Part shown: positions 3,345 to 40,784 of the stretch, piece after piece
Numbering within the stretch: position 1 is the stretch's first letter
Layout of the letters: each line of letters opens with the position of its first letter
Source: Sphacelaria rigidula
Lineage: Eukaryota
Direction of reading: 5' to 3'
Length of the DNA stretch: 40,827 nt
Assembly (NCBI GenBank): GCA_964200075.2
Contig: CAXNAA020000009.1
Span: 1-40,827, forward strand
Program-made: the position numbers and the translations under genes
Notes under the pieces: model-generated
The model's database searches: none
The model's input: only the letters and a program-made list of their open reading frames with translations
What the model was told of the DNA's origin: nothing

Positions 3345-3405
<61 letters not shown>

Positions 3406-8622: not shown

Positions 8623-11600
8623 CTAACTGGACATCTGACGCTGCAGTAACTCGAACCACTGCCGCAAAGCATCCGCTAAAGTCTCGGGCAGGGCTTCCAC
8701 ATGATTGAGCAAGATGTAGAAGGGGAACGGGTACTTGTCGAGGTAGCTTGACAGCATCAATTTCCCGCCCACATAGCTAGCTTCTCGCGTCTTCAGGATG
8801 GACGTGTCTCCCTCCTTATCCAGCACTGTCAAAGTCGAACGAACAAAAAGTCAAGGGGGAACGTTGCGGATGGAAACTCTTAGCCCGCACCTTCATCTTC
8901 TCATCAACCACCACGACAACAATATTACCTGGCGTGTACTCGTGCCCTCGTGAACGTCTCAGCGAAAATCAAGTCGATATATGCTCACACCAATTTCGGG
9001 ATACGTGGTCATCCTCTTCGAGCAAGACCAACACTACGGGATGAAACGCGAGTGACACGGTTTTGGGGTGCCAAGGCTCACTGAACAGCTTGAAGACAAG
9101 ATTGCTCCGGTCCGCCGCACTCCGTCATGCGATTGTGCGCCGACGACCGAATTAGCCCAAAGCTTCAAGAGTCAGCAGAAAGGAATCAGCTCACCAATCA
9201 AAACCAAAAGCTGTCCTCGCTCGTTCATCTCCCTGACTAGGGTCCGCAGACGATCCTTATTTTCCCGGTCGAATCGGCCATCTGATAGCATCAGAACCAA
9301 CTGACGGGGAGTACCCCTGGCACTCGCTCCACCCGAAGAAAAAGAAAAACTGCGTCGGGCCTCCTGCGCAATGAATTTCGTTGGGCCCGCACACGGGTTG
9401 ACGACACGCAGCTGAGAGATGCAATCATGGACTAGATGTTTCGGGTGTTACAGTGCGCCATGTAAAGCTACGTGGATAAAAACATGTTTTTTAATTCGAG
9501 TCAAGAAGGCAAGCGTATGCGCGTTTCGTGCTCACTCCATCGCCCAAAAGCGCAAATGCTCACGCCGATTTTGGGAGTTGGACTCTGAAAATATGTACAA
9601 TGCGACACCACAAAAAAATGTATGGATGGGGTGTTTCGGATCTTTTTGCGCCAGTCCTCGGAAGTCCCAGGAGGGCATGTGAGTCCCCACGACCCGGTGA
9701 CCCCGGAAAAATACCTCCTTTCACACGAAGTGACGTGATGTAACCCCCAACCCCAACCCTAATCCTAACCCTACATGCGGAAACGTTCTCAAGTCGAAGA
9801 ACTGTCGCGGACATTTGTGGATGGTGAGTACGCAAAACATGATCTCTTCGATATTGCGTCATCCTCCATTCGAAAGCGGAATGCAAGCTCAGCATTGGTC
9901 ACTGATGAACACCGCTTTTACCGTACAGCACCCACACACAGCAGATCAAACTTATCAAATCTAAGCGGAGGACACTCTAGCACAAAAGAATCGATTGGGC
10001 GCCATCAAATATTATTTGCCCTCACCTCGAGGAGGGCAACGACTCCTTCCAACATATGAGCCGTATTCGTGCGCGGCTGATCGAATGTGAATCCGCTGAC
10101 GATCTTGGCACCAGCTTGTTCGGTGAACGGCTCCCCAAACGCGTGTAGAAGATCCAGCTGCTCCCCAAACCTGACGACGAACGTAACATGTGCATGGGCC
10201 TTGAGAAAATTTGACGTCCAACACAGGAGAATATACTCTGACTGTTGACTGATCTCTGATTATTTTGCACAAAATCCCGCAAAGCACGCCCAACTTCCAA
10301 CCGTACCAATGTACACCAAAGTCTACTACTCGACAACTTGTACGACGGCGTTAGGAGCGGTCTGGCCACAAAAGTAACTGCCAGAATGCCCTGTGTTGCA
10401 CGTCCCTTATGATTCTGCTCTTGGCGAGGTTTTAGCGCCGCGTGCGCCACTGTGCACACCCAAAAGGTGAAATGCACGGCACAGCGGAGTAGTTAAACGC
10501 CGGGGTTTGTAAAGGCACACACCACAGGGGGGAAGGGGAGGAGGAGGAATTCCTCGGAACGGCAGAAGACACCTGGCTACTGCGGGTGTGATGCTCTTCT
10601 CCGTTATTTCACCTGGCGACGGCGAGTTGCCCGGCCTCGAGCTGCGTAAGGCCCGACGCTACAGTGGTCATGGCCGCCAGGGCAAGCGCTCCCGCGCCGC
10701 AGTCCGCCATAGACTGTGAATCGTCAATCGCCATCAAGATCTGGCGAAGACACGAGACATATGTAGGAGTTGAATGAAAACAACTTCACGCCGCCCACTT
10801 GTCGAGCCATGTTTGCCTAGCCAGAACTCGTGCGAACTCCAGTATCGGTTCACGACATTCTCATCGTCCGAAAGTCTACCGTTTTCGATGCATCGACGGG
10901 GGTGGGAGCGTGCAGGTTCCCAATCGCCAGGGAATATTTCCAGTATCAACCATACAAATTTCGAAGAAATTGCTGGGTCGGGTTACAGCCCTCAACCCCT
11001 TGCCCGCGAGGGTAGCTCACCTGCTGCATCGTGCTCCAAGGGTTGAAGGGGTCAGGAAGATGTTGCGATTGTACTGATACATTCCGGAGTGATCAATACT
11101 GCGGGATCAAGAAAGACCCACCCATGACGATCGGTTACAAAAACACCCCCACTCGCCGAGTAAAAAACACAGTAATTTTATACGGTGGATCGCTGGACGG
11201 ACAGGACGAAGCCTCGAGATCACTTGGCAGTTTTTTGTTCCAGCTAGCGAGGTCACGTCAACCGTAGGTTGAGTTAGCTCGCCGGTCAAAGCCCCTGGAG
11301 AAGGTCAGGGTTTTCATCATCGGCTTCGCTCTGCGCATAACGAGTACCCCCGCAGAATTCCTCACAGTCAACGATATCATCGGTTAGAGAGAAGCCAACA
11401 CGACTTTCGTCTGCACACAAAAAAAATCACAACAACCATATACTCCCCCCGCAATAGTGTAGCTGCAATAGAAATGTATCGAAAAACTGTAATTGGCATT
11501 AGGCTGTACTTCACGCAGTACTCTACTGCAACTGTTGAGCATGTCTTATCCAGTATGAAAAGTACCGAGAGGATTGTTCCAACCAGTCGGGCACAGCCGC

Positions 11601-11855
11601 GTGTCTTCACCTGATAGTCTCTTTTAGCAGGTTTCGTCCTCCTTAGCCATATCTTATCCTTCCGGAATCCTGATGCGATATAGGGGATCACCCTTCGCAT
11701 GTTGATCCGTTTGCCAGAACGGTAGTCACCCTGAAGCTTGGTGGCCACCATGGGCTCCAAGACCAGCCTCAGTTGCTCGCACAGCCTCTGAGAAAGACCG
11801 GCGGTCACGCCTCGCAATTTGCCCCATAGCTCGGCTGGAAGCACGGCCCCCGCGT
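8623..11855 (-). CDS. MDN1: Midasin C-terminal MIDAS (vWA-like) domain exons
   Basis: Exons 11611-11855, 10613-10740 (ILMAIDDSQSM, DxSxS motif), 10026-10170 (FTFDQPRTNT), 9195-9363 (LMLSDGRF) and 8623-8825 (YPFPFY...RQWFELL..., stop TAG). Confidence 0.94.
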
Positions 11856-14800
11856 CTGGACAGAGGGACGAAGCAAAGTTCGGTCGACTTTCTCTCACAT
11901 ACATCATCTGGTGAAACGCGAATACGCCGGCATCACATGCCGCATTAAGGCGATCAAGCAATGACCCGACACTTCTTGCAAGTTTCGATAAAAGTAGGAT
12001 TCGCGCAGCTACTCTGACCGTCTCACCAGGTATGCCAGCCTCTTCGTCCACCTCGGCATCACGCCTCCTGCGCTGCAATTCCTCGGCGAGATCATGAAGT
12101 TGCTCTCGCAACGCTTGAGCATCATTGACGTTGCTTGCCTCACCATGAATATCGGCACTCGTCACGATTTGTGGCTGATTCGGATTCGTTCGTTCATCCG
12201 CGTTGTCCAGTAACTTCAGATCTACCGGGGGCTGTTTCTCCACTGTGCTGTCATCTTCATCGGCTTCCACCATTTCCACATCTGCATCTTGCTCTGTTTC
12301 TGGTCACGTTAACCGTTGAGAGAGGATCGAATAGCGTGGAAAAATGCAACTGTCAACGTGCACACATGTATCCGAGACGGATCACGAATGGCAGCGACAA
12401 CAACGAGACCAAAAAAGCTTCACGACGCGCTTTCTTCGTTCTCCTCCCAACCGATGGCACCCACCTTGCTCGTGTCCATCCTCTTCGCGTTTTTTGCCAG
12501 ACTTGCGATTCTTGTCTCCGCGTTGAGCGTGTTCACCTTCTTCACCGTCAGCATCGCTGACCGCACCCTGGAGAAGAGAATATTCGCGGTCACAGAAATC
12601 ATGATTTTCCTACTGGAGAACTAGATGCGTACCAAGAACACGCTAATGGTGAAGCTATTTGTCAATCTCATGGACGAAATACTTCATCTTCAGTAAGTGT
12701 ACCGCCTACAGACAGATCCGTTGTCTACTGCCTTAAAAGCATAGGTCTACTGTATGCAAAGGGTGCTGAATGCACTCCATTCCCACATTTGGTTTCTCGT
12801 GAATAATAAGAATGAAAACATGCACAGCAGTTCATTTCATCGCCGCACAACCTCATACCTCCATGGAATCACACGCCAAAACCCGTCAATCGGATATACA
12901 GCCACGCACACACCTTTTGGTCTTCACCCTCGTCCAAACCATCCTTCGCATCGGCGGCATCAGCATCATCATCCGATTCTTCTGTCCCTTGAACGATAGC
13001 TTGGTCGATTTCCTTCTTTTCTCCTTCATCAGCGGCTTGACTGGCCGCAGTCTCAGCAGCTTGCTCTTCTGACACCCCCCCAAGGACCTGCACGAGGACG
13101 AAGAGTTAAAAAGGGGGGGGGGGGGGGCGAAATGAAATCACCATGCGGTCAGATCCCATTCCACTCAACCAGCTGACATACCTTCAGCCGACGAGTTACG
13201 GCATCACCACCACAGGATTCATGACCGATACAGGGTAGTCGACCAGCGGTGCGATGCTCCAAAAAAATCGTCGGACCGCCTCGTGTTGAGAGGAACGTGC
13301 GAAGGCCCAAGACGCTGATAAGCCCCATGATATCGTTTGGTGCCGTTGGGTTTTCCAGTTACAGCATCATCACACCTGACTGGAGCCTTCTTCATTGCTG
13401 GTCACGTACTCGAACTTTCCGTCATCTTTATCCCCCGATTCCTCATCGCCACGCTCGGTGTCTTCATCTCCGTCCAGGTCTTCATCTGTTCATGTCAGCA
13501 AGAGGGTATAGCTTTTGACACAATTCATCACGTATCGTACTGCTTGCTCTGTCGCCAACGAGTGAAGGCCATGACAATAAGCGCATCTTCAACCAGGTCA
13601 ACCAGCTCCCCGGGTGATACTGTGGATGAGCACTATCCGTTTGGAATCCGTTTGGAACCATGTGCGGCCGTCGGCGGGCGAGTCACCTGAACATGTGAAC
13701 CCACCGCGAGTATCCGCACCTCCAAATGTTAGTACTAACCTCCGGTGTTGTCCTTGAGCATATCCAGCCGCCTGTGCCAATGCTTCATCACATCGCCCGG
13801 GTTCCTGTAAACCACATCAAAATGCCGCAACGATGATACAGAGGAATATATTTACCGTTGGAGAGAGATAGTGGGTCATGTTTTGAACGGGACGTCAATT
13901 TCATTCGAAAAAAGCATGCGTAGCCCAGATAGACTACGTTCGCTGTGTGAGGGTCAAGGAGGACAAGGGCAGGTTTTATACTTTGTTGAGATGTTGACGG
14001 CGTTCGACCCGCCGAGTACACACAGGCGGTGTGACCACTCGCCCTTTCACACGGCGGTTCCTATATTTACCGACACACGGCGGTTCATCTTCGCAGGTCA
14101 TGGCAGACGAACGCGCCAATGGTTTGGCGGAACTCTGTGGCAGATAGACCTGCGGTATTGCTGATCCACGCAGAAAATCGCGGTCGTCTGTACTGCAGAA
14201 CCTAAAAAATCGGCACTGAACAAATATGTGAATTCGAAACAAAATAGGTGCCCGAATCCGACGGCAAAACACATGATCAACGACGGAATCGATAACGTGA
14301 TAATATTCAATATTTCCGTTATCTTTCGGCTTACATCGACGATTACACACAATTCTGCACTCAGCTGTGCAAACCATTCCCGTTTTTCACATACTAACCT
14401 GAAGGGATTGGGTGCTTCCGGACGCCGTCTTTTGTCTTTGCCGTGTCCCTCGCCCGTTCCATTGCCTCCTGACTCATCCCTCCGCCACTCCCCTCCATCC
14501 CCTTCTTCTCCCTTCCCCCCCCCGCCCCCATCATCGGCACCTTGCGCGGCACTGCCGCCACCAGGCTTGGGGAGTAAACGCGACGCGACGACGGGGTGGA
14601 AAAATAGCCGTTAGATGACGAAACTACAAACACACCCATCAAAACAGTTTTCCCGATATATTTCGAAAAAAAATACAACACAACGCAAAAGCTGGTTGTG
14701 ACAACATGTTGACAGCGTTCGACCCGCCGAGTACACACAGGCGGTGTGACCACTCGTCCATTCACACGGCGGTTCCTATATTTACTGGCACCCTTTGCTC

Positions 14801-17800
14801 TTCGCAGGTCATGGCAGACGAACGCGCCAATGGTTTGGCGGAACTCTGTGGCAGATAGCCCTGCGGGGAATAAAGAACAACTCAAAAATACCCGTTTGCG
14901 CTTCACGACAGCATCCTCACCCTGCAGTTATCAAGATTCAGATTTCACTCACCTCGGTATTTTTCCCGTCGTCTTCTCTGGCGTCCTCATCGTCCCCGTC
15001 GTTGTCTTCAGCCATCTATATTGAAAAAGAACAGCACCGAAGAAGAGCGTTCAATTTCAAGATACCTGCAACATTACGATGTAGAATCCCAACAACTTTC
15101 TTGCAGGTATCTTGTCACCCTTGTCGGCAAACGATGCGGTTATGACCGAATCCCCCCCAAAGAACTTTCACCAGCACGTGTGACGTTTGTCGCACACAGG
15201 AGACACCAGATGTTGACAGCGTTCGACCCGCCGAGTACACACAGGCGGTGTGACCACTCGCCCTTTCACACGGCGGTTCCTATATTTACTGACACTCTTT
15301 GCTCTTCGCAGGTCATGGCAGACGAACGCGCCAATGGTTTGGCGGAACTCTGTGGCAGATAGACCTGCGGGATATCCAACTTCACTATATATTGAGTCCT
15401 CAACTGCCTTGACGTTTTTCCACATATACTTTTCACAAATGAACGTAACACAAAGCTCGAAACGCGACGGATTACTCGATGTAGCGCTGATTGCACGCGG
15501 CGAATACACAACGAACGCAATCTCTCACCTCATCCTTCGAAGCATCCATCGTCACCCGAGCGTCGCCGTCGTCTCCCTCAACTCCAAAAGCAGGTGGTTC
15601 GTCCTTCCCATTTTCCACCTGATCCTCCACCTTCTCGGTTTCATCGCCTTCGTCCTTATCTTCACCACCATCAGCGTCGGCGCCCTCTTCGTCGACAGGG
15701 TCCACTTCTGGTGCTCCCGGATTCCCAGCTCCCTAATATAACGGCATGGTACGGACCAAAGTTAGTAAAACCTGAAACGCGATTTGGTTGTGGGTCATCT
15801 CCTCATGACCCATGACGGGCTAATCTGGGCTGTGTAATACCATCGCTCGGTTCAAGAAGACAACAATGTACAGCGCACAACCATGAGTAACCAGGGACGT
15901 TACACATCAGAAAGATCGTTTCGTGTTCAAGCCAAGCTAGACTAGTGATGTCACGGTGGGCACTATGGCCCAACGCTTGATACGATGTTACTTGTAGCGA
16001 CAGTTCCCTGATGAAAACGTCTCGCTGGTGACCTCTACTCCACCACCTATCGTCTGAAATAAAAGGGATTGTTGACAGCCTTCGACCCGCCGAGTACACA
16101 CAGGCAGTGTGACCACTCGCCTTTTCACACGGCGGTTCCTATATTTACTGATACCCTTTGCTCTTCGCAGGTCATGGCAGACGAACGCGCCAATGGTTTG
16201 GCGGAACTCTGTGGCAGATAGACCTGCGGGATAATTCCTTTTCACATCACGACTACTTCCCCCATGAGGGTTAGGGTTAGATAACCCATGAAACGACGAC
16301 TGTACGAAGGGAGGGATCACGACGCGAGACTGGGTAGATTGGATTGATCGTCATTAGCACCATGTCCGTGATATCCGAGCATGGTACAACCTTGGCCAAA
16401 CAAACCCAATACATCAAAACTACGCACTCTGCATTATATTCGTAATCACGTTACGAGATGTACAATGCGTACTATATTGACTTTTGTGGTATATCCACGG
16501 CCCCGGTGGCTCAGTTGGTAACCAAGTAACCTTTTGACGGTCGAGTAGTGGGGTTCAATTCCCGGAGCGATCTGGGATTTTCTCTACACCATGCCCAACA
16601 GTGGAGAGCGACCATGTCGTGGGTACACAAAATTCGACTCTACGGTCGACGAGGGAAAGCGGTTGTTGAACCGCAGGCACCGCAGGAGTAAGGTGGGGTA
16701 ATAAAAAAAAACACAGTGAAGTTCCTGTGTCGACCTTCCTTCTGTGTCAACCCAGCTAATGCGTCCACATATACCGAAAGATGTAGACTTTGTCTAGAAT
16801 AGATGAAACGTCAACACAGAGACCCGATACAAAAACCACAAGACGGTGAAACGCTAGGGCAAATCCAGGGTGCATATCCCGCAACGTTTCCTCATTACAA
16901 TTTCACCCCGAACAGACTGTGCCACGCGGCGGGGCAGGTAACATAATATGCGGAACGTATCATACCTCAGGCTGATTTTCATCTTGCCCGAGTTCGGGAG
17001 TTTCCGCAGCTTCATCTTCGGGCGCCAGAGTCTCGAAGCCCTCTTTCTCCTTGCCCTCCTCATCTCCATCACCACCTTCGCTGCCCCCGTCATCGTCCTT
17101 GCCCTCCTCCGCTCCTCCTCCTTCATCTCCGTCTTCATCCTGATTTCGGACCATGATCACATCAGCACATTTTCATGATTTGGCGTAAAGAGTACAGTTA
17201 CTGAAATCGATCTCCCCTCCCCCAAGTACAAACGCACGAACACACATACACCGATGGGCGCGTCTGTCTTTCCCTACAAACATGGCGTAAGAGTTGCATC
17301 GTGCGGGGCACTTCAGCGTCTGTTCACGTTTTGAGCCTCGTCCAGGTTGAGATCGTCGGGGAGCTCTTCCGGGTTGTCTTCGCCAGCAGGGTCCTTGTCT
17401 TCATCGTCCAATTGGCCTTCATCAACTTTCATTGCCTCTTCCTCACCTCGCACCTGAAATGGACATACGACGGAGAGTGAGAGTGTTTTCGCCTCAACGA
17501 GACTCTGTCGGTAAGGGTCGCGATTTGTCGTGAAGAGATGAAGTCAGAAAGCTGGGGGAATACATACTTATTTGACCATTGATCACACATCCCCTTCGAG
17601 ACAGAGGGGACACGGGGGGAAATGGGGATGAACGGACCTCCGCTCAGTGTGTAACACGTACATGACACGCTGACGGTGGTACCCTTTTCCAACATGTTGA
17701 CAGCGTTCGACCCGCCGAGTACACACAGGCGGTGTGACCACTCGCCCTTTCACACGGCGGTTCCTATATTTACTGACACCCTTTGCTCTTCGCAGGTCAT

Positions 17801-20800
17801 GGCAGACGAACGCGCCAATGGTTTGGCGGAACTCTGTGGCAGATAGACCTGCGGTGACTAATTTGACACGCATCCTCAAAAATGTTCTTTGCTTTCGCCG
17901 TAAAAAATCATGGGTGCACCAATTGAATAAGTTACAACACACGATTGAACGATTGACAATCGCACGTTGGCCAAATGAAGTTGAAGCTCACCTCTACGCC
18001 CATGGGCTTGTCCTCGTAGTTCTCCTCCAGGTCATCATTCACCAATCCTTCCTTCTCGCCGTCATCCCCATCTTCATGCTCATCATCAGCGTTTTCTTGG
18101 TCAACCCCATCATCACCCATGTTCCCCTCGGGCTTTCCATCAGCCTCATCTTCGCCCTTGTCCTCTTCTTTTCCTCCATCCTGTTTTCGATCACGCACAG
18201 AGTAACGCCCTTCAACACAATGGCTCGAGCAAATTTGTTCTCTTTCGATTTCACATGATGGCATCTCCCGACGTGTAAATTCAAGTTCGTCACATCACGA
18301 GCCAATAATGTCAGGGTATGATATGGCTTGCGACCAAATGTTATGTGGTCTAACCCGACCTTTTCCTTGCCCTCTCCGTCTTCATCATCGTCGTGACCAT
18401 CCTCCTTCGTGCGAATCTCGTCTTCTTCTGGCTTTTCTCCGTCTAGCCGAGACCTGACCATACACGGACACGAGACGGAGGGAATGAAGACGTGAGAAGT
18501 GCCTGTTGCGCCACTCATTCCATGTCACGTGACACATCCATCTTAACTGACTCCATAAAACCGGGGTCATCACACGCGTCTTGGACCGGCCATGATAAAC
18601 GAACATGCTTACCCTGCTTCGAACTTCTCCTCCTGCTCATCCTTTCCTTCCTCCTGCCCATCGTCGTCATCATCCCAGAGTTTCTCATCGACCACGTCGG
18701 CATTATCGCCCAGGTCATCACCCATCTCCCGATCAAGCTCCTCCTTATCTTCAGCTTCTTCTTCTCCCTCATCGTTTTGGTCACCCTTCCACATGTTGCG
18801 CATGACAAACGGGAGGGAGGCAGGTGTCAAAACTCTCTCCCTCGCGCGAAAGAAACATATTTTCCACTGTCATCTCTCGTCTCATCGACTGACAAAACAG
18901 TTTTGCCGTACGAAACGCGGTGGATCTGTAACACGGCATACTGACTGCGCGAATACCTTTCTCCTTCAAAACGCCTACACACCCAGAAGAGATCACTGAC
19001 CTTGGGAACATCAAACATATCCCCCTCGAAATCGTTTTCCATTTCCATACCCTTGTCCTGCTCGTCCTCGCCTGTGGACGGAAACGGAGATGGGACACAC
19101 GTCGAAGAGGGCGTCAGGATGATTGCAACAGCGGCTGCACACACGGAGTTGTACCGCGAGCTCTTCCTTAGCTTCATCTTTCGATTCCAACATCCTCACC
19201 GAGTTCTTTGACTTCCTCGGCTTGATCTTTATCCGGCTCATCGCCCTTGAGACCCAGCAGTTGTTCTTCGTCCTCGATCTGATCTGTGACGTCCTTCTTC
19301 CCATCTCCCTCACCCATTCCTGTCCCCTCAACATCATCGTCAAACTGTGGAGTGGCGCAGGCATGACATGGAATGCAACACGAGCGATACTGTCGAACTC
19401 ATTTCGAAAAAATGCGCACACCCGACACTTGATGAAGTGAACACCACGCGGTGCGGAGCTGACCCAAACTCGCGTCAAGTAACATGCAGTAAAGTCTCGC
19501 CTCTTATTTTCCAGATACGAAATACGTCGGTAGGGAGCATATTCGGAGAAATAAGACGAATGACGTGGATGATGATCCGGATCAGTGATGTGTCGTGTAT
19601 TAGCCCACAACAGATCACGGGACCCCAGATTCTCAAAGAGAGAATGTTCCATGATAATCCGCTTATTGCGGAATATCCCTCCTTGTCGAAATCGAACTTC
19701 ATGCAGCCCAGGTGGACGTGTCATCAACATCACTAGCTTCAAGTGCAATCAGTCAGTCCACATCACACGAACCTTCATCCCTTCAATGTCGCCCTCTCCG
19801 TCCCCCTCCATCTCTTCCGTTTCATCGGAGCACAGTCCCTTCGAAAGCAAAAGTCGGAAAACTCTAAGAGTGACGTAGTGCAGCTTGGCCGTTCCCTGAA
19901 AAAAAGTGCAACACGACAGTGAGAGTTAGGAGAAGCGTGACAGCATTTTGTACGTGAGCAATGCAACACCCCCGTGTTCCTATCGACAGAAGCAGAACGT
20001 CGAGCCCTTTCCCTACCGCTTTTCGTTGTAGTGTGCCATCATTAGGTACGCGACGGGGTATTGACGAATCGCAACATCGACACCAGAGATTCTAACCTTG
20101 TTGAAAGCAACGATCCCTGTCAGCACCGCTCGTCCAGCACCCAACACTTGCTCGGCCAACGGCAGAACGTCACGCAGCAGCGTCACCGCAGCGACCGTCG
20201 CCTCGGCGGCAGGCGCCGCTCCGTCCGCCCATCCAGTAGCAGTCACGGCTTCCGAGAACTCCACCATGCATGTTCTGACCGATCTCAGCGCGTCCGCGCA
20301 ACGCCAGAGTTTGAGCGATCTGGCTTGCTCGAAGGAAGATGCGTGTGTTTCCATCAAGGTCGTACCAGTGACCGACAGTCCTTCGTCTGCACCGTCGCTG
20401 TCGGAGTCAGTAGTCCTCTCTGGCAATAGGACCTCACCGTCGGCTGTAGTGTCCGATTTTCCATCTTCAACAGATGACGGACGGGGGCCTCGGCAGAGCG
20501 ATTGCACCGAAATCAGCATCGATTTCACGGCGAAGTTTATTTTTTTTCCGAACTGCCTCATGTGATCAACCGTCGCTGATTGCGCCGCGTCGAGAGCAAT
20601 CAAGTCAATGGCCGGTGAGGACGATTGCAAAGGTTGAGTCGAAGACATCGCTCGCACCTCCGATTCCGAAAACCGGGTTGAACCTGGCTGCATGACCCAC
20701 CAGAAACGAAGTACGGGGTCAGAGTTCAGGCACGTGCGGACGGTGTCGATGATGCACGACAGGTGGTCGCCAACACGCTGTAGAGCGGCGACAGGTATAA

Positions 20801-23800
20801 CGTTCGAGAATTTCCGAGAAATTGCGCGCGTTTCTGTTGCGAGGCATGCGAGTGACTCTTGATTCTCCAACACCGCAGCGACGGCTCCAGCAGCCAGGAG
20901 GGGCACCGCCACGTCCGATGAAGATTCGTCTTTGGTCGAGGTTGACATTGGAGGGGCCGGGAACTGATCGAGGCGGGCGAGCATGACGGATGTCTTTTGC
21001 TCCAAGTCGGACACGGCAGCCGTCGCCTCTGTCGAAGAGGCCGAATCAGTAGGGTTTTGACCCCAACCTTGAGAAAAAAAAGGCGGGAAGCAAAATAAAC
21101 GACAATTCAAGGGAAAAAAGCAGGGCGAAGACCGTCAGGGTTACATAGCTGGGAAAAGGGTTCAAAAAAATTCATCACTTTAATCCAGAAGTACCGAGGG
21201 CGTGACCCTTCCATACCGCGGACTCCCTATACAGCATTTCGCACCATCTCATCAGCGAAGTAAAAATCACATGCTGCCTTCAGATTTAGTTGCTACAGCC
21301 CATAGAACATGGGACCGCGGCCGGTAGCTCGTATCCTCGACGTCACGGCATACATGCCGCAACTCACCAGTTCCATTCGGCGTGACGGGCGTCGAAGGTG
21401 AGGGAGGATCGGCTTCCGCCATGGCTTTCACCAGCAGCTGGACCTCCCGGACCGATTCGACAGATCTCCGCAGACCCTGCCGTTGGGCCTCCACGGCCCG
21501 CCTCAGTGACCTCTGGGCCGGTAACGGTTTTTTAGTCGAAGCCGCCGCAGGAAACGCGGCGTTTTCGTCCACGGCCATCGAATCAACTGGATACGAGGGC
21601 TCCTCCTTGCCACCACCGATGGAATAGTCTCGGACAAGTGAACGGAGGGCGTTGATTTCTCGCGCAAACCTCGATATTTCCCTCTCGAGAGCAACAGCCG
21701 TTCCCCGCTGTTGCAAGATTACAAGGCCCAGATGTTCCGACAGACCTTTCATCACCTGTTACAGTAGGAGTCAAGACATGCCAAGTCGAGTACAGTAGGA
21801 GTCAAGACATGCCAAGTCGAGGAAAAGTGGTGCCCACGCGCTCGACCTAAATGGCGTCGAGTTGATATAATGTTGGACAAGAAGACATACCCAGATTTAT
21901 CGAAAATCAAGTTACGGGGTAGGGTTACATACCACCAGCGATCGACAGCCAGATTTGGGTGAAACGTTGAGTACAGCGAGCGCAGCACCGGCACCCGCGA
22001 CATTTCTAGTGAGGGGGAGCGACACATGTTGATGAAAGAAACACGGAGAAGCAAGCTGTGCCGACTACGAGATGGAGCGACGTACTCATTAGACCACGGG
22101 GAATACCACCTGGCAGACCACGTCCCGCACCATGTCCCAAGCATTTGTGACTGACCACAGCGTTACCAAGTATGCCCAGCCCATACCACTCGTTTTTGTA
22201 CCTCTGCTTCCCTCCTTGATAGATCCCTTGCCACGGGTGCTCCGGCCTCTAGTCTCAGTCGGGATAGCTCGCTCAAACTCTTGAAAAAGTATCGCTCCCC
22301 ACGATGCAATATATCGCGCACCGCCGACGCCGCACCGGGCGTGGGAGCATGGCCCTCAATTACGCTGTTGTCCAAGAGCCACGACGGCTCTGTCCCGGCG
22401 AGTTGGTCAGCGGCGAACGGCTGTGGGATGGCCATGACGTGAAGCATGTCCGACGCTTCCCCTGGTGTGAAGGACTTGGCGTGCTTCAGACCCTGCTTAC
22501 GCATTCCCACCAAAAGGTCAAGAACGGCCCGCTTCTTCACCTGCACAGAGACGCGTTTGTTCGGGTGAGTAATGTGCGCCTCCGAGGACAGCAACGCGTT
22601 TCTTTTACAGCCTTGCCTGTTGCGTTTCGGCATCGTTTTTTTTTCCGATGTCGAATGGAACCGCAATATTCTCACGAGGGTAGGTGAGCTGCTCATTCGG
22701 CATGAGTAGATTGACTACGCGCACGGCGTTTCAACGCCAAAACACGATTTTGAACCAACCGTGCTACACGCATCTGCGTTGTACAAGTAACGTGGAGCAC
22801 TACTACTAGAGCTAGTGGGAGGTGCACGAACGGAACACACCACAGGCAGGCTCCTGAGAGAACACGATCGTCCGAGAACATGACATGGTCCGCAATGCTT
22901 CTCGAGCTCACGAGAGGTGCACGGACGCGATACAAGATCGAATGGCTGCGCAAACCATGATCCCGACAACTGCCAATGCACACACCTGTTTGCCGATGGT
23001 GGTGGCTCGCAACGCCTGTATTCTCCCGAAAACGGCAAGACACAACTCTTCCGCTAGTCCTGCCCCCAGAAACCCGACCGGCCTACCACCGTCCGTCCAC
23101 CGGCCGTTTCGCGTCCATCTTGCCGACTTCTTGGCGTACACGCTCTCGCGCAATAACGAGCGCATGCGTTTCTTCAGCATGGACAACCGGGCCGTCAGCG
23201 AGCCAACTTTGTTGGTATTGCCGTCGGAACCTGTAGAGCTGTCGGCAAGTAAAGCCACCTTCAGCCAAGGTGACCACCCAATGCTCCTGGGATCGGTGAC
23301 TATTTCTCTCGTTGAGTGTAAAAGTTGCGGCTCCTTGGGAAGGCACACGTCCAGCAACTGTAACGACGTTCGCGATGCGTGACAAGGCCTAGCGGAACGG
23401 GATTTAGCTTCCGGTTTCTGCAACTCTTTTTCCATGGGCTCCCGTGCCTCAACGACGACACCGTGAATCATTACTGTATCGTCGGCAACGTTCCGTTCCG
23501 CTTCATCAGAATCAGCATCCGCTTCGACAAAATCAGCCGAGCTGTCCACCTGTCGCCGTCGTATACAGGAACGGGGGGCGCAACAATCACGGCCAAGAGT
23601 GCCTACATTGAGGCTGAGCCGAGTGGCATGTACCCAGGCCAAGAAGACCTCGCGCGTCATTCATCACCGACAATTTTGTTCACCGTAGCAACAAGCGAGG
23701 GTTCACTCTACAGTTCGTCGATATCTTTCCTACGTCGGCGTAGACCTATCGACATCTCGTAGTGGGAGAGTGTAATGGCATGACATCGAGCACAAAGCAA

Positions 23801-26800
23801 AGGTCTCACCTTCTTCACCATGGCAAACATGGAACCAACACTGGGGATCTCTGTGCACGGTGCGGCTCTCTTTGCCCCCGCGTCATTTCTTTCCCCGACA
23901 CCAGCGGTGAATACACGGTTCAGCACCTCTGACACCGATACCTGCAGCAGCCCAAATCGACAATAGCACAAGGGGAAAGCGCTCGTGGTGTGAAGACATG
24001 AGAAATATCTCCAACCCGGTCACATGAGAGTGTTTCATTTTGGCACACGTTTGTGGCTTCATCTTTCACAAACATAACCTGCGAATATTAGCATGGGGAA
24101 CACACACACCTACTTGCTCGAATATTCTCCACGACAAGAGCGATTGGATACAACCCCACTCCCAGGAAGTAGCAGCCGCGCCAACAGTCCACGTGTTCCG
24201 GAAGAGATCACCGGCTTCAATATTGCCTCGTGACACAACCTAGGGTGAGATCTCGTGACAATTCGCTAGCGAGTACCGTTGTACAGAAGATGTTGACAGC
24301 GTTCGACCCGCCGAGTACAGACTAGGCAGTGTGACCACTCGCCCTTTCACACGGCGGTTCCTATATTTACTGACATCCTTCGCTCTTCGCAGGTCATGGC
24401 AGACGAACACACCAATGGTTTGGCAGAACTCTGTGGCAGATAGACCTGCGTGGAATGCTATATAAAAAGGATTTCAAGAGTCTGCAGGCCTCGGTCCAGT
24501 ACAGAACCACTTCGAAAATGACCCCTCACCTCCAGCACCTCATCGTACTGAGACACAAGTTTGCAAAGCTTCCGGTGCGACTTCTCGGATGCCTCCGCCA
24601 GCGAGTAATACGTTTGCTCATCCCACCTGTTCAGCAACACAGTAACATCGATACTGCTCGTCAACACGAAAGCAATCTTGCCACATTTTCCCTGTACAGA
24701 AAATCCGCCCACGAGTTGATCTGATCACACGCAATGCTTTGAAGGAACGGACCTCCCATCGGGATTGGCTGTAGTTGACGATGACGCTTTGGATCGTCAC
24801 TGCGTTGGACAGTCAACCAAGTGACCGTTTTTTTGCGCTTTGAAGTGACCTTTTTTTTGCGCATTCAATCGAGATCACTTACACACAAGGGTTCATCAGC
24901 AATCCGGTTTTCCAGTAATGCAACAGCTCATGATTGATACTCACTTCGCCAGTTTGACCTCCTCCTTCAGCTTTTTCTCGATGCTATTCCGGACTAAATC
25001 CCTCGAGCTCATCACGTCGTCGGAGAACTGCAGAACGAGCGTGAATCAGGGTATACGGCTAGTTAAGTTGTGCCCATTCCAAAGGATAAGACAGACATGT
25101 TCACCCTCAGAACAGCTACCCTACATACTCACTTTTATAAAAATTCGGACATTTTCGCTAAGCCGACGTTTCAGCGTGAGGAGCGGGATCCAGCGCACCT
25201 GAGAGTAGAACCGCCATATCCCTTGCACGACAACAGCCACGGTGGTGGATTGGGGATGTTCCTCGGCCACGGCACAGATGTGAGCAGCGAACGCTTGGAG
25301 CATCTGCAACCTAGCCATGAACTCACCGACGCTCGAAGTTCGAATAAAGTCGTCCAACGCCTGAAACAGAACTGCGGAGGACAACGGACGGGGTGGTCGT
25401 TACATCCTACAAGAAAATACTGAACACGACTTCACCTACTGATCTTTCGAGTTTTCCGTCAGCGAGGCGCGCGAGATATTCCGTCTCGCAAAAGCAAGTG
25501 AAGGGATTTTGCAGCGTCGACGAATCTCGTACTGGTGGATGATGACATACAAGCTCATGTCACGAATGTGCTCTGTGTGAGGGTTTGTTCTCCATAAGAA
25601 GGAATTCCTCATGAGGACCTTTTCCAGATGTTTTTGAACAAGTAAACCGATTTTCATCATCGCACATGATGACATATATGAGCAACAAAACGTAGTGTGG
25701 TGCAAGCCACTCGAGCAGGGCATATGCACATGGTGTTCGTCCTCGAAGTCAACGTACTCACTTCTGATGCGCGCAAAGCCGGCGGGATCGAAACCGGACA
25801 AACCGCCCTTGGCAGCTTCTCGCCTCGTGAATTGCCGGTCCTCGGGAACAAGCCCATGCCACACCCAATCGGCAAACGACTCCTTTGCAGTCGGCCAGTC
25901 AGGGACCGACAAGACCTTGGTGGGAGACTCCTCTGCTTCATGATCGCCAGTCGTGGAAGCCTCCACCAGAGAATCTTGATCCGCCTCCCCTAGCCATTTT
26001 CCATCGAGGAGTCGAAACAAGTGTAACCACCACCGGCTTCCCTGCACACCCGATAGCATGATTAAAACATGGTACGGGATTTTGCGTCGCGAACTAAACC
26101 CCATAATTTCTCGAGCTTCCCCCAACTTAGCGTGAAATGTAGTTAATACCAAACTCATCTTCGCGCACGCGGGCTCACTCGGGGTATTGAAGCGTCCCAT
26201 TTAATGTTACCGTCACCCACGTTGACTTCGAAAGAATTCCAATTAGGTGACCAGGTCAGCTACGAACCAAATGTGATCCCGGCGTCGAATATCACCTTCG
26301 TCACGGATGCTCGCTCTCGGCCATCAAGCAATTGCGGCCAGCCCTTCAACTCGATGCCCCTCCACCGCACAACAAGAGCGCTCAAAGGTCCAAGCTCCTC
26401 CTTCAGGCTAACACCGCGATGAGCGTTCTGTTCCCAGTCTTGCGCCTTTCGTAACGTGAGTTCCACCCCGGCAAGCACAGCAGCCAGCGGAGAATGGAGC
26501 GGCATCCGACGAACACGATCTGCTACTCTAGCTAGCTGTAGTCGGAGCATACACCAACAGAGTGTGCAACAAATTGCGATATATGAAGATCAACACTGTG
26601 CAACGAGACCAAAAGCGTGTGCAACGAGCACTGCGGACATTCCAATATCGAGTTCGAGTAATAAAACCTGACTGAAACTGCAAGGTTCGAATCCCAACGC
26701 TAACCCTGATAGCAAAGCAGACGAAAGGTCCACCTCCGCCCGTCATGATGATCCTTCCCAATACGCGGTAAAAAATATACTTTGCATTTCGAAAAATATA

Positions 26801-29800
26801 GTTAGCAACCGAACTCGCATCTTGAGCAGCGACAAAAAGATCCATCCGCACCTGAATAAGAATGCCGTGCCCAGGGAATTCCTCCAGTAAGTTGGCAGCA
26901 CGTCGCAACAAGGCCGTTAGAGGGCGGTCCGTCAAACGTGTCTCCCTGACGTTGGGATCTCGGTGGAAATCGACGTGAGAATCCACGAACTCGTAAGACC
27001 GGCCCGAAACACCCTCCTCTTTCACGGGCGTCCCCCTCATCATAGATTTCCGAGTGAAGTCGGCACACATTTTCGTCGCTGAAGCATCCCACAACAGTGT
27101 CGTTCCAGACTTGCACATGCGGGCCGCATCTGAAATCGCCAACATGTGCGCCGGTGCAAACGCCGCCTCAAGGTCCAAAAACTTCCCGCGGATATTCGCA
27201 TCCTTACCGACATCATCGGGCCTAGACACTAGTCGCGGGACACAAGCCGGGGCACTTGCGGTGGGTCCCGCCAGAAGAACCGCTGCGCGGTAAGAATCGC
27301 CGAACGCCATTACTCGAGCCGGTATCAAAGAATTCGAGACATCATCGCCGGCTGTGGGCGCGGCGTAGTGCACGCTCAAGCGCCGCAAGGCTATTCGCTT
27401 GCGAACTGCAAGGGACAAAAGCAGGCGCGCATGGCACGCTACGAGGGAGGACAGCTGTTCGTCGGAGAGATGCCTTAGGGCGTGTGGCTGCGTGCAATCT
27501 TCAGACGGTTCTTGTGCGGCGACTGAATCGGCCGCTATAGCGTCAGCTGTAGAGTCGTCAGATTCGGCCGTGAGAATGTCCTTGAATCTGCTGTGGTAGT
27601 CTGGGAAGAGCATGCGAAGTCGCTTCTCGTCGACAGCTTCTGCTGACTGTACCTGTTTTGTACGCGGTGTTGAGGGACGGTATCATGCTTGTCGTGACGT
27701 CACTCATGGACCCTTGGAGACGCACGGTGAAAAACGTTCCGATGGCTACGCAGTACTGTTATTTCTGTACTGAGCTTTTGATGCAGCCCCGTTATACAGT
27801 GTACACGTGGGGTACCGTCATACAATCCACGAATTCGTGGCGGACGTCAGCAGGAGACCTTCTTCGAACGGTGTATCTGCACTGCTGACACCAAGGTAAG
27901 AGAACATGGCAACTCATGCCCTGATTTGGGGTAAATGAAGTGCCCGAGTCATGCACAACATCACCCAGGACCTTCAAAGCATACTGTCCTCTGAGAGTTG
28001 GAGCTCAAAAATTCGAGGAGGGGTGTATGTCCCACGTGGTTTCATGAACAGCAGCATCAGCTGTTACCGCCGAAACTACGACATGTAGGCGTCTCGATGT
28101 TCCAAAGAAGCCATCAGGGAAAAAATTAGAGTATTGAGCTGAAAGTCCTCACCAAGGTAGGATAGCTTTCTTTCATCACCTGGCACTCGGAACATCTCGA
28201 CGCGTTCGTACCTTGCGAACTACTGTGAAATATCATAAGAATACGGCAGCAACTGCTCGCGAGTCACGAGCTACCTCCTGGTGAAAAATACTGGTTTTAC
28301 ACGGACGAGGGCACGTTTCCGTCAGTAAAAAATTAGAGTGTTTTAGAAGCTTGATACGTCCTCACGGCGATAGGACAGCTTTTTTTCTTCATTCGGAATG
28401 CCCTCGCGGAGCCGAGACGAGTGTCGCGTCAGTCGTCCACGCGTTTACACATCTCGACGACAGGTATGGAAATCGTACAGCGGTGGCCTCTGGGAAAAGC
28501 TACATACCACGTGCTCCTGCATCTTGTACTTGATGATTTCGGCCTCCGTCTCCTCCTTCTCCGCCTTTTCCGCTTCTGCCTCGGACCACGCTGTCACTGC
28601 TGCGCCCATTGCTTTTAGGGCGCAGTCCACCGCCGGCGCCTCCAGAGATCCCGATAGGAGAAGGATCTCGGCCCGTGAGAGGACAGCCTTTTCAAATCAT
28701 CATGAGCACACGGGAAGATATGTCTTCAAGCCGTGCAATTGTTCACAGACAGATCATGTACAACCCTCAACTTCACAGTACCAAGGACAGTCGATTACGT
28801 CAGTATAGTTTTCCAAACGCACAGCTTCATCGGTGCCGAAAACACTTCACGAGACAGATGCACTCCTCCCTCTCAAATACAAAATGTGCGAACTCCGACG
28901 TCTGGGATACGACTGGCCTTCCGAAAACGCAGAAAACTTCCATATGCCAGATAGCGAGGAGGCGCAGCGTCCATTTTGGATATCTTAATCTAGCTCAAGC
29001 ATAGGAGGACCATCACGCAGTGTCCGCAGAGTGATCCAGGCCAGGGGCCGTTCGAGCAGGAGCAAAGGAATTCAGAACCGAGGGGTTAAAAAGACCAGGA
29101 TGCCACAAATGCTGAGCCCGCATTCATGACTCCGCTGTTGATATGAGACGAAGTACCACACCTTGTTCGAACACCCGCCACTGCACACACCTGTAGCAGA
29201 GCCATATGCTGGGCGCCCGATCCTCCTCGGCCATTTGGAACTCGATAAGTTAGTGCGAAATTGAGTTCCTCGCCCAAGGAGTCGCCATCGTCTTCTCGAT
29301 CGTGCCGCGCAGTGTTGACAGTCGGACGCTCGCACGCAGGGTACGGGTACCGTAGAAGGAAGCTCTGCAGACGGATCAAAGAATCGCAACTGGTAGGTAC
29401 TGCACCTGTGGAAGGTTGGCATGCCGAGACGGGAGGAGATCGTGGGTTTGGGGCGATGCTGCATTGCAACCTGCACGCACCTCCAACACAGTTCATGAAC
29501 ACAGCTCGTACAAATCAAAATTTCGATGCTTTGACGCGACCAGCGAAAAGTGCGACGAACAGTAAAAGGTCGACAGTTTTCGAGACTCCATAACAACCCG
29601 ATGCAACCCAAGAATGTAGACAATTATCAACATGTGTTCCAGAACACATCTGAGTCGGTCAAGTTTGCCGCTAGCACAAGCAAACGAAAAAAAAAGATAG
29701 AAGCCTGAAAGTGCATCATCCGCACGCCCCGAACCTACCGGGCTGTCGTGCAGATTCTTCCGCAGATGATTTCCCAAGGGCATTTGTTGCACAAGCAGCA

Positions 29801-32800
29801 GCAAGCAGGCGCAGTCCCAATCGACACGTCTCAATCGCATCGCAGAGACCCGTCATCACGTCCGGGTAGGCTTCCATGTACTCCGTTCGCATCCGCTCTA
29901 GAAATGATCCGGCCGCCTCTTGCCACACAACTTCCTCTTCGAGAGCAGCTGATCTTGACTTGGCCGCCTTCGCGCTACTGCCTGTTTCCGATCGCGATTG
30001 GTGCAAGCCTTCCTGAGGAGGGTCTGCGACACCAGCGAGACTGCTCAGGTTGTGAGCGAGAGACGACACGCGTTCGGGGTTCCCAACTCCTCTGGCGAAG
30101 GCGTGAACGTCACGGAAGAGAGTTTGGAACGCCGGGCGATCCGCAGCACGCTCGATAGACTCAGACCCGAGACGACGACACTCTTCACGGAGACGCCTGG
30201 CTTGCTGCAGTAGGGGCTCCATCTGAATACGTCATACAACAGGTGTAACCGGTTGCAGAATTTGTGAACGAAAAAGCTCACGAATTTGGCAAGCCTACAA
30301 TTTGGTGGAAACGACCCGGGAAGACGAAATAAAACTGTCGCCGACAGGGCTGGAAAAAACACGCTGTGAAACGACCAAAATGTTCCAAAACAGATTCGGA
30401 GTCCACACCACGTTGTGCATTGCGGCGTGAAGCAACGAATGTTTGGTTCATCCCGCGGTGGCGCCGTACAATCAGCGTCCACCTAGGTGATTTTGCAAAA
30501 CTGCGAACCGACCAAGGAGAATGTTTTCCCGCCAGGTACGAGGCCCGAGGGCAAAGTTAGCGGGACTCCAACGTGGTGACGTGTTTGCTGAAACAGTTCT
30601 ACAGTTCGACAGAGGGCAACGTTTTCTCACCCCTGGTGGAACATCTTCACCACCCTCCAACCTCGATAACCACCGCCATGCTGTAAGGTCACTCTTTACT
30701 GTTGCCAGTCTCCGTTCCAACAATTTCTTCTCCAGCGATGGCTTCATTCCGGGGTCAACAGGGGACGACGGCAGCAACAACATCAACCTCAAGCAGCCGA
30801 GGAGGGTGATACCGAGCCCGGTTAACGCTTGCGCTGACTCAACCTCATCACATAAAGAGGAACCGACCACCTTCGACGCGTAACACATGGCTCGTGCACA
30901 CGGCACGATCAACGTGTCCCCAAGGTCCGTCAATCGGTTGTCTCTGCATGAACTCAAAGCTTTCCGCGCCTCCACCTCGAACTCGTCCGGATCTCTGCAA
31001 ACGCGACTGGCGGTGGTTCGGGGTGGATCGCCTCTCTCTCGAGGACTCATAAACGCTCTGCTGAACGATGGTACGCCTTCAGCAGCGGGGGACGCTTCAT
31101 CGAACGAGCACAGTGTTTCGTACAGACGACACCAGGCAAGGCTTAGCACTTTCTCCAGCACTTCCTCCGACGCAGATTCAAGGTCACGCAAGAGCCGCAT
31201 CGCGGTCCGAAATTGTGCCATTCTGGTGGACACGTTCATTAGTGTCAAGTCGACCACCTCTCGCCGTTGCGCCCCTCTTGCTCGGGCCGTATCCGAGGTC
31301 AACTTGTCCTGCAAAACAGATGAAGACGACAGTCGTAGCAGAAAAGCTGATCGCACAAGCGTCAAGAGTTGAGCGGGTCCACCACCCCACGAGGTGTCGT
31401 CAGGATGATCCCGTCGCTTGGAGCCGGTCACGCCGGGAAAGACAATATCATCACCGTCCTGAACCATTCGAGGGGGACCCAGTTCAGTCAAAATGGTGCC
31501 TGGTGATTGAAAGAGGTTGTCCCACAGACGTTGCCCCCACGCATCGAGGGCAACTGGAAGTATCTTCTTCAACATGGCCCTCAACCCCGACGCTGAGAGG
31601 TTATTTTCCCATGCCCAGATTAGAGTCTGGTAGGGTCGGGCAACAGCTGGAGACAACGTCGGGGTGGCGAGAAGAGCCGACCTCAGTCGTACAATGCGCG
31701 GCATGAGCGGCGCGGCGCGGTTGAGATCCGAAAAAGTCTCTTGGTTCTCCAGTGACAGTTGGGAGAGTGCTGCTAGCACCTTGCACTCTTCCGCAACAAT
31801 CCAATGCTCCATGAACGACGCAAGCTGTACGGCTGCCCAGCGGCGCAGAACATTCTCACCTTCACGGTCATCATCAGCGTGGTCAGACACAACCAGCAAC
31901 GTCGAATTGGCCACGGCCTCTTGCGCCTCCGTCTCAAAATCGTCGAATCTTCGTGTGTCTTGCACGCCATGATCCTCCTGCGCGGGCTCGTTTTTGCTGA
32001 CGTCCACATCATAACGTGTACCCTTGTGGGCCTTGGTGAACCGCGCTTGCGCGGTCCTCACCACCTCTTCAAGGACTTGAGGCAGACTTTCCGCAAGAGC
32101 AACGGTGGTGGCAGGGCCGTCTCTCCCGTTTCTTTCCACTCCCTCGTCGGCCGGATCAGTTCGAAGGGTCGAATCTCCGATGTCCTCGACTTCGCTCGAT
32201 GCCGCCCACTGCAGGGTGCACAGGGCATGCAATAGTTCTCTCTTAGCGTCGTCGGGGACACACAACGAAGGATGCGCCGATTCCAAAAGACTTCCCAACG
32301 TGGAAATCCCACTTGACGCGTGAGGTCTGTATGACACTCGAAATTCGGAAGCAAGACGATGAAGTCGACCGAGAGCACACGCTGCTGCACCGGTCGTGGG
32401 AGCGGCTGCGCGCGCACCATGCGCCCAAAGCGAGTCCGAGGCGAGCGAGGAGCCCCCCGCATGCTGCACGACGGCTGCTTCTATACGAGATCGGACAGCC
32501 TCGAAATTGGCACAAGTCGATGACACTCCCGACAGCTCAGAAACAGCCGGCGGCGACACACTACGAAGAACCGCCGTACGTTCACAGACCCAGCTCCACG
32601 AGACCAAGAACAGGTCCCAAGGGAACACCAATAGTACCGCGCCCGCTGAGGCATCAGGCTCAGCTTGGTTGGCACTTGTCGTGGCAAGAACATGAGACAG
32701 CGAGTCCCTCGCGTGGTAGACACCCGCAAGGGCAGAGTGAAACTCATCCGCCGCCTTCTCCCCCAGAGTCGTAACTATGTCAACAACTTGCCGACAGAGG

Positions 32801-40753: not shown

Positions 40754-40784
<31 letters not shown>

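Follow-up and report, generated by a model that had tools for sequence, protein, structure and literature searches.

A gene for midasin covers almost the whole of the stretch analysed here, positions 1 to 40,827 of contig CAXNAA020000009.1 from the stramenopile alga Sphacelaria rigidula (assembly GCA_964200075.2; forward-strand numbering, hereafter the window), and within its introns lies a repeated element of about 160 nucleotides (nt) with the anatomy of a box H/ACA small nucleolar RNA (snoRNA). We interpret this element, with a probability of roughly 0.8, as a canonical box H/ACA snoRNA carried in six intronic copies by midasin and equivalent to the guide called snR34 in yeast and U65 (SNORA65) in human, directing the pseudouridylation of two uridines of the large-subunit (LSU) ribosomal RNA (rRNA). 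A preliminary description had described the guide pockets of the element and proposed their targets; the intronic setting in midasin is new relative to that description.

Anatomy of the element and its six copies

The copy on which our analysis centres, c5, is 163 nt long and consists of two hairpins, the first followed by an H box and the second by an ACA box (Table 1). Its minimum free energy (MFE) fold contains two hairpins at -59.4 kcal/mol, compared with -51.8 +/- 3.7 kcal/mol among shuffled sequences (z = -2.0, with 6 of 200 shuffles equal or better). The hairpin-hinge-hairpin-tail architecture of box H/ACA RNAs is seen in the MFE structure of c5 and in five of the six copies altogether, the exception being c2. 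An H box of the form ANANNA occupies the hinge and the ACA triplet stands 3 nt from the predicted 3' end. In both hairpins the H or ACA box follows the last pair of the upper stem at the canonical spacing of 14 nt, and each internal pocket accordingly presents its target uridine at a distance (14 nt) that agrees with the 14-16 nt typical of the class. The pocket segments CUGCCAC/GCCA and AUAGGAA/GUCGA were located on the minus strand within 17854..17692, the interval given in the preliminary description.

The copies were found with a 30-nt probe, which had six matches in the window, all on the minus strand, and none in 100 shuffles. An alignment of the six that included 50 nt of flank at either end showed similarity from the base of hairpin 1 to the ACA box plus 0-1 nt, while the flanks proved unrelated and do not align. 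Within the RNA, mean column identity across the six copies is 94%. Variation affects 22 columns among the first 160 positions (one of them due only to the cut chosen for c1), and not one of these columns falls among the 23 guide nucleotides, CUGCCAC, GCCA, AUAGGAA and GUCGA, all of which are identical in six of six copies (hypergeometric P about 0.025); the invariance previously claimed for the four segments is thereby borne out by the alignment. A single variable column does lie within a pocket, at a position predicted not to pair (position 150, changed in c4). The ACA box is kept in every copy and the H box reads AGAGCA in four; AGAUGA in c1 still fits ANANNA, whereas AGAGCG in c6 has lost the last A and fails the consensus. 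In the guide-mode structure, standard pairs occupy 98.8% of the 252 pair cells across the six copies. In one variable pair both partners have changed in a compensatory way (A81-U153 to G-C, in lower stem 2 of c1); four further changes are one-sided and compatible with wobble pairing, and three cells are unpaired.

Copy c2 may be weakened, because lower stem 1 contains a G-A mismatch, caused by the substitution of G for U8, and the MFE fold departs from the two-hairpin shape. Such stem or box defects, present in c2, c4 and c6, are what would be expected were the copies decaying dispersed intronic repeats, or snoRNA pseudogenes devoid of present function, and no mature RNA was seen in the contigs, which cannot show RNA ends or levels. 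We find this hardly credible. Similarity has been lost from the flanks, yet 163 nt remain 94% identical per column with no change in 23 guide positions; five of the eight variable pairs are compensatory or wobble-compatible; and neither poly-A tails nor target-site duplications, the marks of retroposition, are present. For the last of these reasons retroposition was also rejected as the origin of the copies.

Copy c1 has a peculiarity in its hinge (region 14069-14090), where a 4-nt insertion makes the hinge read AACCGCCGUGUG; the same 12 nt start the upper stem of hairpin 2. The insertion may represent a local slip or conversion, and could compete for pairing.

Table 1. Coordinates of the host gene, the introns, the six snoRNA copies and the parts of copy c5. 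RNA positions are counted from the 5' end of the RNA.
Feature	Position	Strand	Remarks
Host gene midasin (Rea1/MDN1)	8629..39856	minus	multi-exon; collinear with a 4764-amino-acid brown-algal midasin (P0002)
Intron with c1	13805-14398	minus	GT..AG; spliced contigs X5, X7, X8
Copy c1	13989-14155	minus	167 nt; H box AGAUGA; 4-nt hinge insertion
Intron with c2	14566-14952	minus	GT..AG; spliced contigs
Copy c2	14704-14866	minus	U8 to G, a G-A mismatch in lower stem 1; MFE fold not two-hairpin
Intron with c3	15016-15528	minus	GT..AG; spliced contigs
Copy c3	15208-15370	minus	near-identical to c5
Intron with c4	15733-16965	minus	GT..AG; spliced contigs; also holds a very high-copy tRNA-like element
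Copy c4	16067-16229	minus	one mismatch in lower stem 2; change at non-pairing pocket position 150
Intron with c5	17454-17991	minus	GT..AG; spliced contigs
Copy c5 (main element)	17854..17692	minus	163-nt box H/ACA snoRNA: hairpin 1, H box, hairpin 2, ACA box
c5 lower stem 1	RNA 2-9/57-64		CGCAGGUC/GACCUGCG
c5 pocket 1	RNA 10-19 (5' strand); RNA 52-56 (3' strand)		5' strand UAUCUGCCAC; 3' strand GCCAU
c5 pocket 1, 5' guide strand	17842-17836	minus	CUGCCAC; pairs with rRNA GUGGCAG, 3' of the target U-U
c5 pocket 1, 3' guide strand	17803-17800	minus	GCCA; pairs with rRNA UGGC, 5' of the target U
c5 H box	17789-17784 (RNA 66-71)	minus	AGAGCA (ANANNA); 14 nt downstream of the hairpin 1 upper stem
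c5 lower stem 2	RNA 77-83/151-157		
c5 pocket 2	RNA 84-94 (5' strand); RNA 144-150 (3' strand)		5' strand AAAUAUAGGAA; 3' strand GUCGAAC
c5 pocket 2, 5' guide strand	17767-17761	minus	AUAGGAA; pairs with rRNA UUCCUAU
c5 pocket 2, 3' guide strand	17711-17707	minus	GUCGA; pairs with rRNA UCGGC, one G-U pair
c5 ACA box	17697-17695 (RNA 158-160)	minus	followed by three nt; 14 nt downstream of the hairpin 2 upper stem
Intron with c6 (inferred)	23942-24529	minus	GTGAGG..CTGCAG; between tblastn exon hits 24634-24527 and 23950-23807
Copy c6	24288-24451	minus	164 nt; most diverged; AGAGCG at the H-box position; stem changes wobble-compatible

Predicted target sites in the LSU rRNA

Ribosomal RNA for comparison was obtained by scanning metagenome contigs for both target segments joined by a gap of 30-50 nt. 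At least 104 contigs carry the two segments, with a gap of 39 nt, or 37 nt in a few; the same pattern had no match in viral contigs, and the three contigs that were checked against Rfam all carry complete eukaryotic small-subunit (SSU), 5.8S and LSU rRNA. Every U of these three ribosomal DNA (rDNA) units was then scanned for contiguous Watson-Crick or G-U pairs flanking an unpaired U-N, with at least 3 base pairs (bp) on each side and at least 8 bp in total. Since the units were selected by the pattern itself, only the uniqueness of the sites and the level expected by chance are real tests.

Pocket 1 has exactly one site per unit in all three units, uggc[UU]guggcag, which it would pair over 4+7 = 11 bp with no G-U. 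The longest site for pocket 2, again found in each of the three, is ucggc[UC]uuccuau (5+7 = 12 bp, one G-U), and its other sites reach 8-9 bp and contain 2-4 G-U pairs. By chance (2000 shuffles, one 5291-nt rDNA unit), at least 11 bp arose for pocket 1 in 42 cases and at least 12 bp for pocket 2 in 46. Each pocket thus offers a guide in two parts that would pair over 8 bp or more, no fewer than 3 bp of them on either side, around an unpaired U-N. Natural guide duplexes are described as 8-17 bp long, with a minimum of 3 bp on either side and, in most cases, the shorter arm at the pocket's 3' side (PMC6800473); both predicted duplexes lie within this size range and share that asymmetry.

The rRNA segments that the preliminary description had supplied from recall do exist, both in the metagenome contigs and in the Rfam LSU_rRNA_eukarya consensus, and the pairings it proposed are reproduced on the fetched eukaryotic rRNA, including the one G-U pair of pocket 2. 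At the two segments the Rfam consensus reads GGGAUAACUGGCuUGUGGCaGCC and UUCGAUGUCGGCUCUUCCUAUCaU, where capitals denote strong conservation. Among 72 distinct 767-nt regions around the sites, pairwise identity ranges from 42% to 99.5% with a median of 72%, and the exact segments are present in all. Because they are conserved in the fetched contigs and in the Rfam consensus, both segments are very likely carried by the LSU rRNA of S. rigidula itself.

The uridines in question were identified by aligning region 2420-2540 of the annotated E. coli 23S rRNA (2904 nt) to the LSU of contig L012. The pocket-1 uridine (L012 LSU position 2811) aligns with E. coli U2457, the pocket-2 uridine (2865) with U2511, and C2855 with C2501, and the alignment is free of gaps between these positions. 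The two targets are 54 nt apart, a distance equal to that in yeast. Yeast psi2826 (psi denoting pseudouridine), which is directed by snR34, is given as the equivalent of E. coli psi2457, and yeast m5C2870 as that of C2501 (PMC11121408); from the latter offset it follows that yeast 2880 corresponds to E. coli 2511. Both psi2826 and psi2880 are among the modifications lost on deletion of snR34, snR52 and snR67 (PMC11121408, Table 1), and snR34 is described as the guide for U2826 and U2880 (PMC5778458, PMC8536713, PMC11121408). The earlier assignment of the targets to yeast 25S psi2826 and psi2880 is upheld by the alignment to U2457 and U2511 together with these papers. The two pockets of one RNA are therefore predicted to address the pair of positions that distinguishes the snR34/U65 group, the unique pocket-1 site being the equivalent of U2826 (E. 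coli 2457) in three of three units and the best pocket-2 site that of U2880 (E. coli 2511), likewise in three of three.

A genuine H/ACA RNA might nevertheless direct one or both pockets to some other substrate, such as a small nuclear RNA, a messenger RNA (mRNA) or a different rRNA site, or might chaperone folding without modifying anything. The scan covered the rRNA of other eukaryotes only, and the weaker secondary sites of pocket 2, at 8-9 bp, could be taken to favour this possibility. We judge it very unlikely, given that the rRNA sites are unique or best, at 11 and 12 bp, with the U correctly placed 14 nt from the box, and that both are known pseudouridines under the control of one yeast snoRNA (PMC11121408, PMC8536713).

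Midasin as the host gene

The long open frame at 30472-34590 (P0001), an uninterrupted exon of approximately 4.1 kilobases (kb), has relatives of 2400-5000 amino acids, the best of which is a 4764-amino-acid Ectocarpus protein (P0002; 38% identity, 93% coverage, E 7e-219), followed by proteins of other brown algae (about 38-40% identity) and then by proteins named midasin at source. A tblastn search with P0002 produced 29 minus-strand hits whose order follows the protein strictly, residue 263 falling at 39856 and residue 4763 at 8629, and the AAA modules and C-terminal MIDAS region of P0002 align with UniRef 'Midasin'. Judged by this homology the host is midasin (Rea1/MDN1), because the hits are collinear, the relatives bear that name and the UniRef alignment agrees. 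Pfam returned no families in ten long frames and P0001. Midasin is an AAA ATPase that serves as a maturation and assembly factor of the pre-60S particle; the gene extends across almost the whole window and is interrupted by many GT..AG introns.

Splicing was followed in contigs of public sequencing runs, of which X5, X7 and X8 are guessed to be RNA and X1 is DNA. Among the 15 joints listed of the 39 found, all 15 are GT..AG on the minus strand and occur in X5, X7 and X8, and none occurs in the DNA run X1. A 4422-nt contig of X7 links the exons from 15529 to 23546, which therefore belong to one transcript. Five copies of the snoRNA lie in five introns, one copy to each and on the strand of the host, as is characteristic of intron-encoded snoRNAs; these are five of six consecutive introns within a poorly conserved acidic region of the protein. 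The distance from snoRNA to acceptor ranges from 138 to 346 nt. The joint of the c6 intron is absent among the 15 of 39 joints listed, and we infer the intronic position of c6 from the tblastn exon hits on either side and from the GT..AG ends of the gap between them. Cover by RNA-type contigs is slight or absent over the introns and the snoRNA parts, and is uninformative on the mature RNA.

The pathway by which intron-encoded H/ACA snoRNAs are assembled, released by splicing and trimmed is well established, and applied to this gene it would proceed as follows. RNA polymerase II would transcribe the midasin pre-mRNA, on which each copy would assemble co-transcriptionally with Cbf5/dyskerin, Nop10, Nhp2 and Naf1/Gar1 into a ribonucleoprotein, and splicing and debranching would free the introns. 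Exonucleases would then trim each intron to the part protected by the H/ACA proteins, leaving a stable RNA of approximately 160 nt that ends in ACA-NNN. In the nucleolus pre-LSU rRNA would be bound at UGGC-[U U]-GUGGCAG by the 5' pocket and at UCGGC-[U C]-UUCCUAU by the 3' pocket, and the first unpaired U of each would be presented to Cbf5 and isomerised to pseudouridine. The uridines so modified, which correspond to E. coli 23S 2457 and 2511 and to yeast 25S 2826 and 2880, would be neighbours of the peptidyl-transferase centre in domain V.

Several further features of the window were recorded. In the c4 intron, summed contig depth in the DNA run X1 rises to about 1.7e5-2.4e5 over a stretch at approximately 16500-16660, compared with approximately 68 for its neighbours; at 16499/16500, 16585 and 16659 many contigs break off or diverge. 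Read on the plus strand, this high-copy stretch resembles an element derived from transfer RNA (tRNA), possibly a short interspersed nuclear element, and ARAGORN found no tRNAs in the window. The same intron contains a telomere-like repeat, TAACCCTAACCCT, at 16267-16279 on the minus strand, approximately 40 nt upstream of c4. A low-depth X5 contig of 385 nt (17426-17810) runs from exon through intron into c5 and carries three letters typical of c2 (17745, 17748 and 17776); RNA editing is disfavoured as the source of these letters, which most likely reflect an assembly path through the repeat. Elsewhere there are homopolymers of 60 C (3346-3405) and 27 G (40754-40780), and a perfect tandem duplication of a 31-nt unit (21760-21821) that begins immediately within the intron 21756-22201, on its acceptor side. 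A crude box C/D scan of both strands of the window against the L012 rRNA yielded no candidates.

Relation to snR34 and U65, and significance

Yeast snR34, also an H/ACA guide with two pockets, serves the same LSU positions as those predicted for our element, although it is an independently transcribed single gene, whereas the element occurs as six intronic copies in a protein-coding host and shows no match in sequence or structure to known families through Rfam. Human U65/SNORA65 is an intron-encoded vertebrate H/ACA guide for 28S rRNA, and resembles the element in being encoded in introns; the element differs in having six copies in one host, midasin. The target positions of SNORA65 in 28S rRNA would be 4373 and 4427. 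The target of SNORA65 is described as a 28S site in a different numbering (PMC7862062), and snR34 is described as the homologue of human U65 (PMC5778458). In the element the 5' hairpin takes the upstream site; an assignment of hairpins to sites for snR34 was not found in the literature searched, and the supplementary figures of PMC5778458 and PMC6800473 may show it. The orthologues of U65/snR34 in microsporidia, where pockets stand 14-15 nt upstream of the H/ACA boxes and orthology was drawn from the expected rRNA targets (PMC5499648), follow the same logic as ours, although they belong to a different lineage and the likeness is one of logic and not of sequences. In bacteria the same position (23S U2457), one conserved universally, is modified without any guide RNA, by a stand-alone, protein-only pseudouridine synthase. 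This enzyme is presumably RluE.

In Rfam the whole window has no matches at the gathering score, and searches with 701-nt and 176-nt segments match no H/ACA family at E<=10, returning only unrelated families at chance level. The SNORA65 model (RF00302; 127 positions, gathering score 70 bits) was in the library searched and likewise gives no match even at E<=10, so the element is not a member of RF00302 as that family is defined. The orthology with snR34/U65 that had been proposed in the preliminary description is consequently sustained in one part, the shared pair of targets, and not in the other, since neither SNORA65 nor any other Rfam model matches in sequence or structure.

The absence of detectable similarity to any Rfam H/ACA family, SNORA65 included, could also be expected of an H/ACA guide that functions at these two uridines but arose independently of snR34/U65, and it is true that guide pockets can be re-targeted or recombined, so that a shared pair of targets does not by itself prove common descent. 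Outside the guides, however, the sequences of H/ACA snoRNAs change quickly, and for this reason a covariance model would be expected to miss a homologue across kingdoms. One RNA, moreover, unites both targets of a single known guide, which is unlikely to have happened twice, and the recognition of U65/snR34 orthologues by their targets is accepted practice, for instance in microsporidia (PMC5499648). We therefore regard independent origin as unlikely. The evidence supports the element as a functional equivalent of yeast snR34 and human U65/SNORA65, and, judged by its targets, it is probably orthologous to them.

Weighing against the interpretation as a whole are the following points. The z-score of the c5 fold is only -2.0, and in that MFE fold pocket 1 is narrowed by an additional pair, C19-G52, which has to open before the target can bind. 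An alternative pairing above the pocket has been described for snR34 too (PMC6800473). Covariation is weak, the observed score being reached by 74 of 500 shuffles, and six nearly identical copies give little power in this respect. Copy c2 combines a non-canonical MFE fold with its G-A mismatch, c6 lacks the last A of the H box and c4 has a mismatch in a lower stem. No Rfam H/ACA family matches the element, as described above. The rDNA units, besides being chosen by the tested pattern, come from other eukaryotes, and the presence of the sites in them is by construction. Finally, the contigs of the sequencing runs cannot show the ends or levels of a mature RNA of approximately 160 nt.

Since the flanks of the copies are unrelated while the RNA is 94% conserved, and five copies occupy five of six consecutive introns, the data allow, as a tentative possibility that we hold to be less than even, that the copies are kept alike by gene conversion or selection and that each midasin pre-mRNA yields up to six guides. 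If so, a guide for the peptidyl-transferase centre would be supplied in step with transcription of a pre-60S assembly factor, and the dosage problem of obtaining an abundant snoRNA from a rare 15-kb mRNA would be solved. In the open-access literature searched we found no description of H/ACA snoRNAs from brown algae or stramenopiles, and no report of midasin as a snoRNA host.

For ribosome biology an RNA of this kind is an expected housekeeping component, and in that sense no surprise. Our interpretation would nonetheless extend the snR34/U65 guide to a stramenopile alga, in which it would serve two of the most conserved pseudouridines near the catalytic centre, and would support an early-eukaryote age for this two-target guide. 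It also provides an annotation for six previously unannotated genes, and a ribosome-assembly gene with one copy in each of six introns would make a tidy case for the study of snoRNA dosage and, possibly, of concerted evolution.

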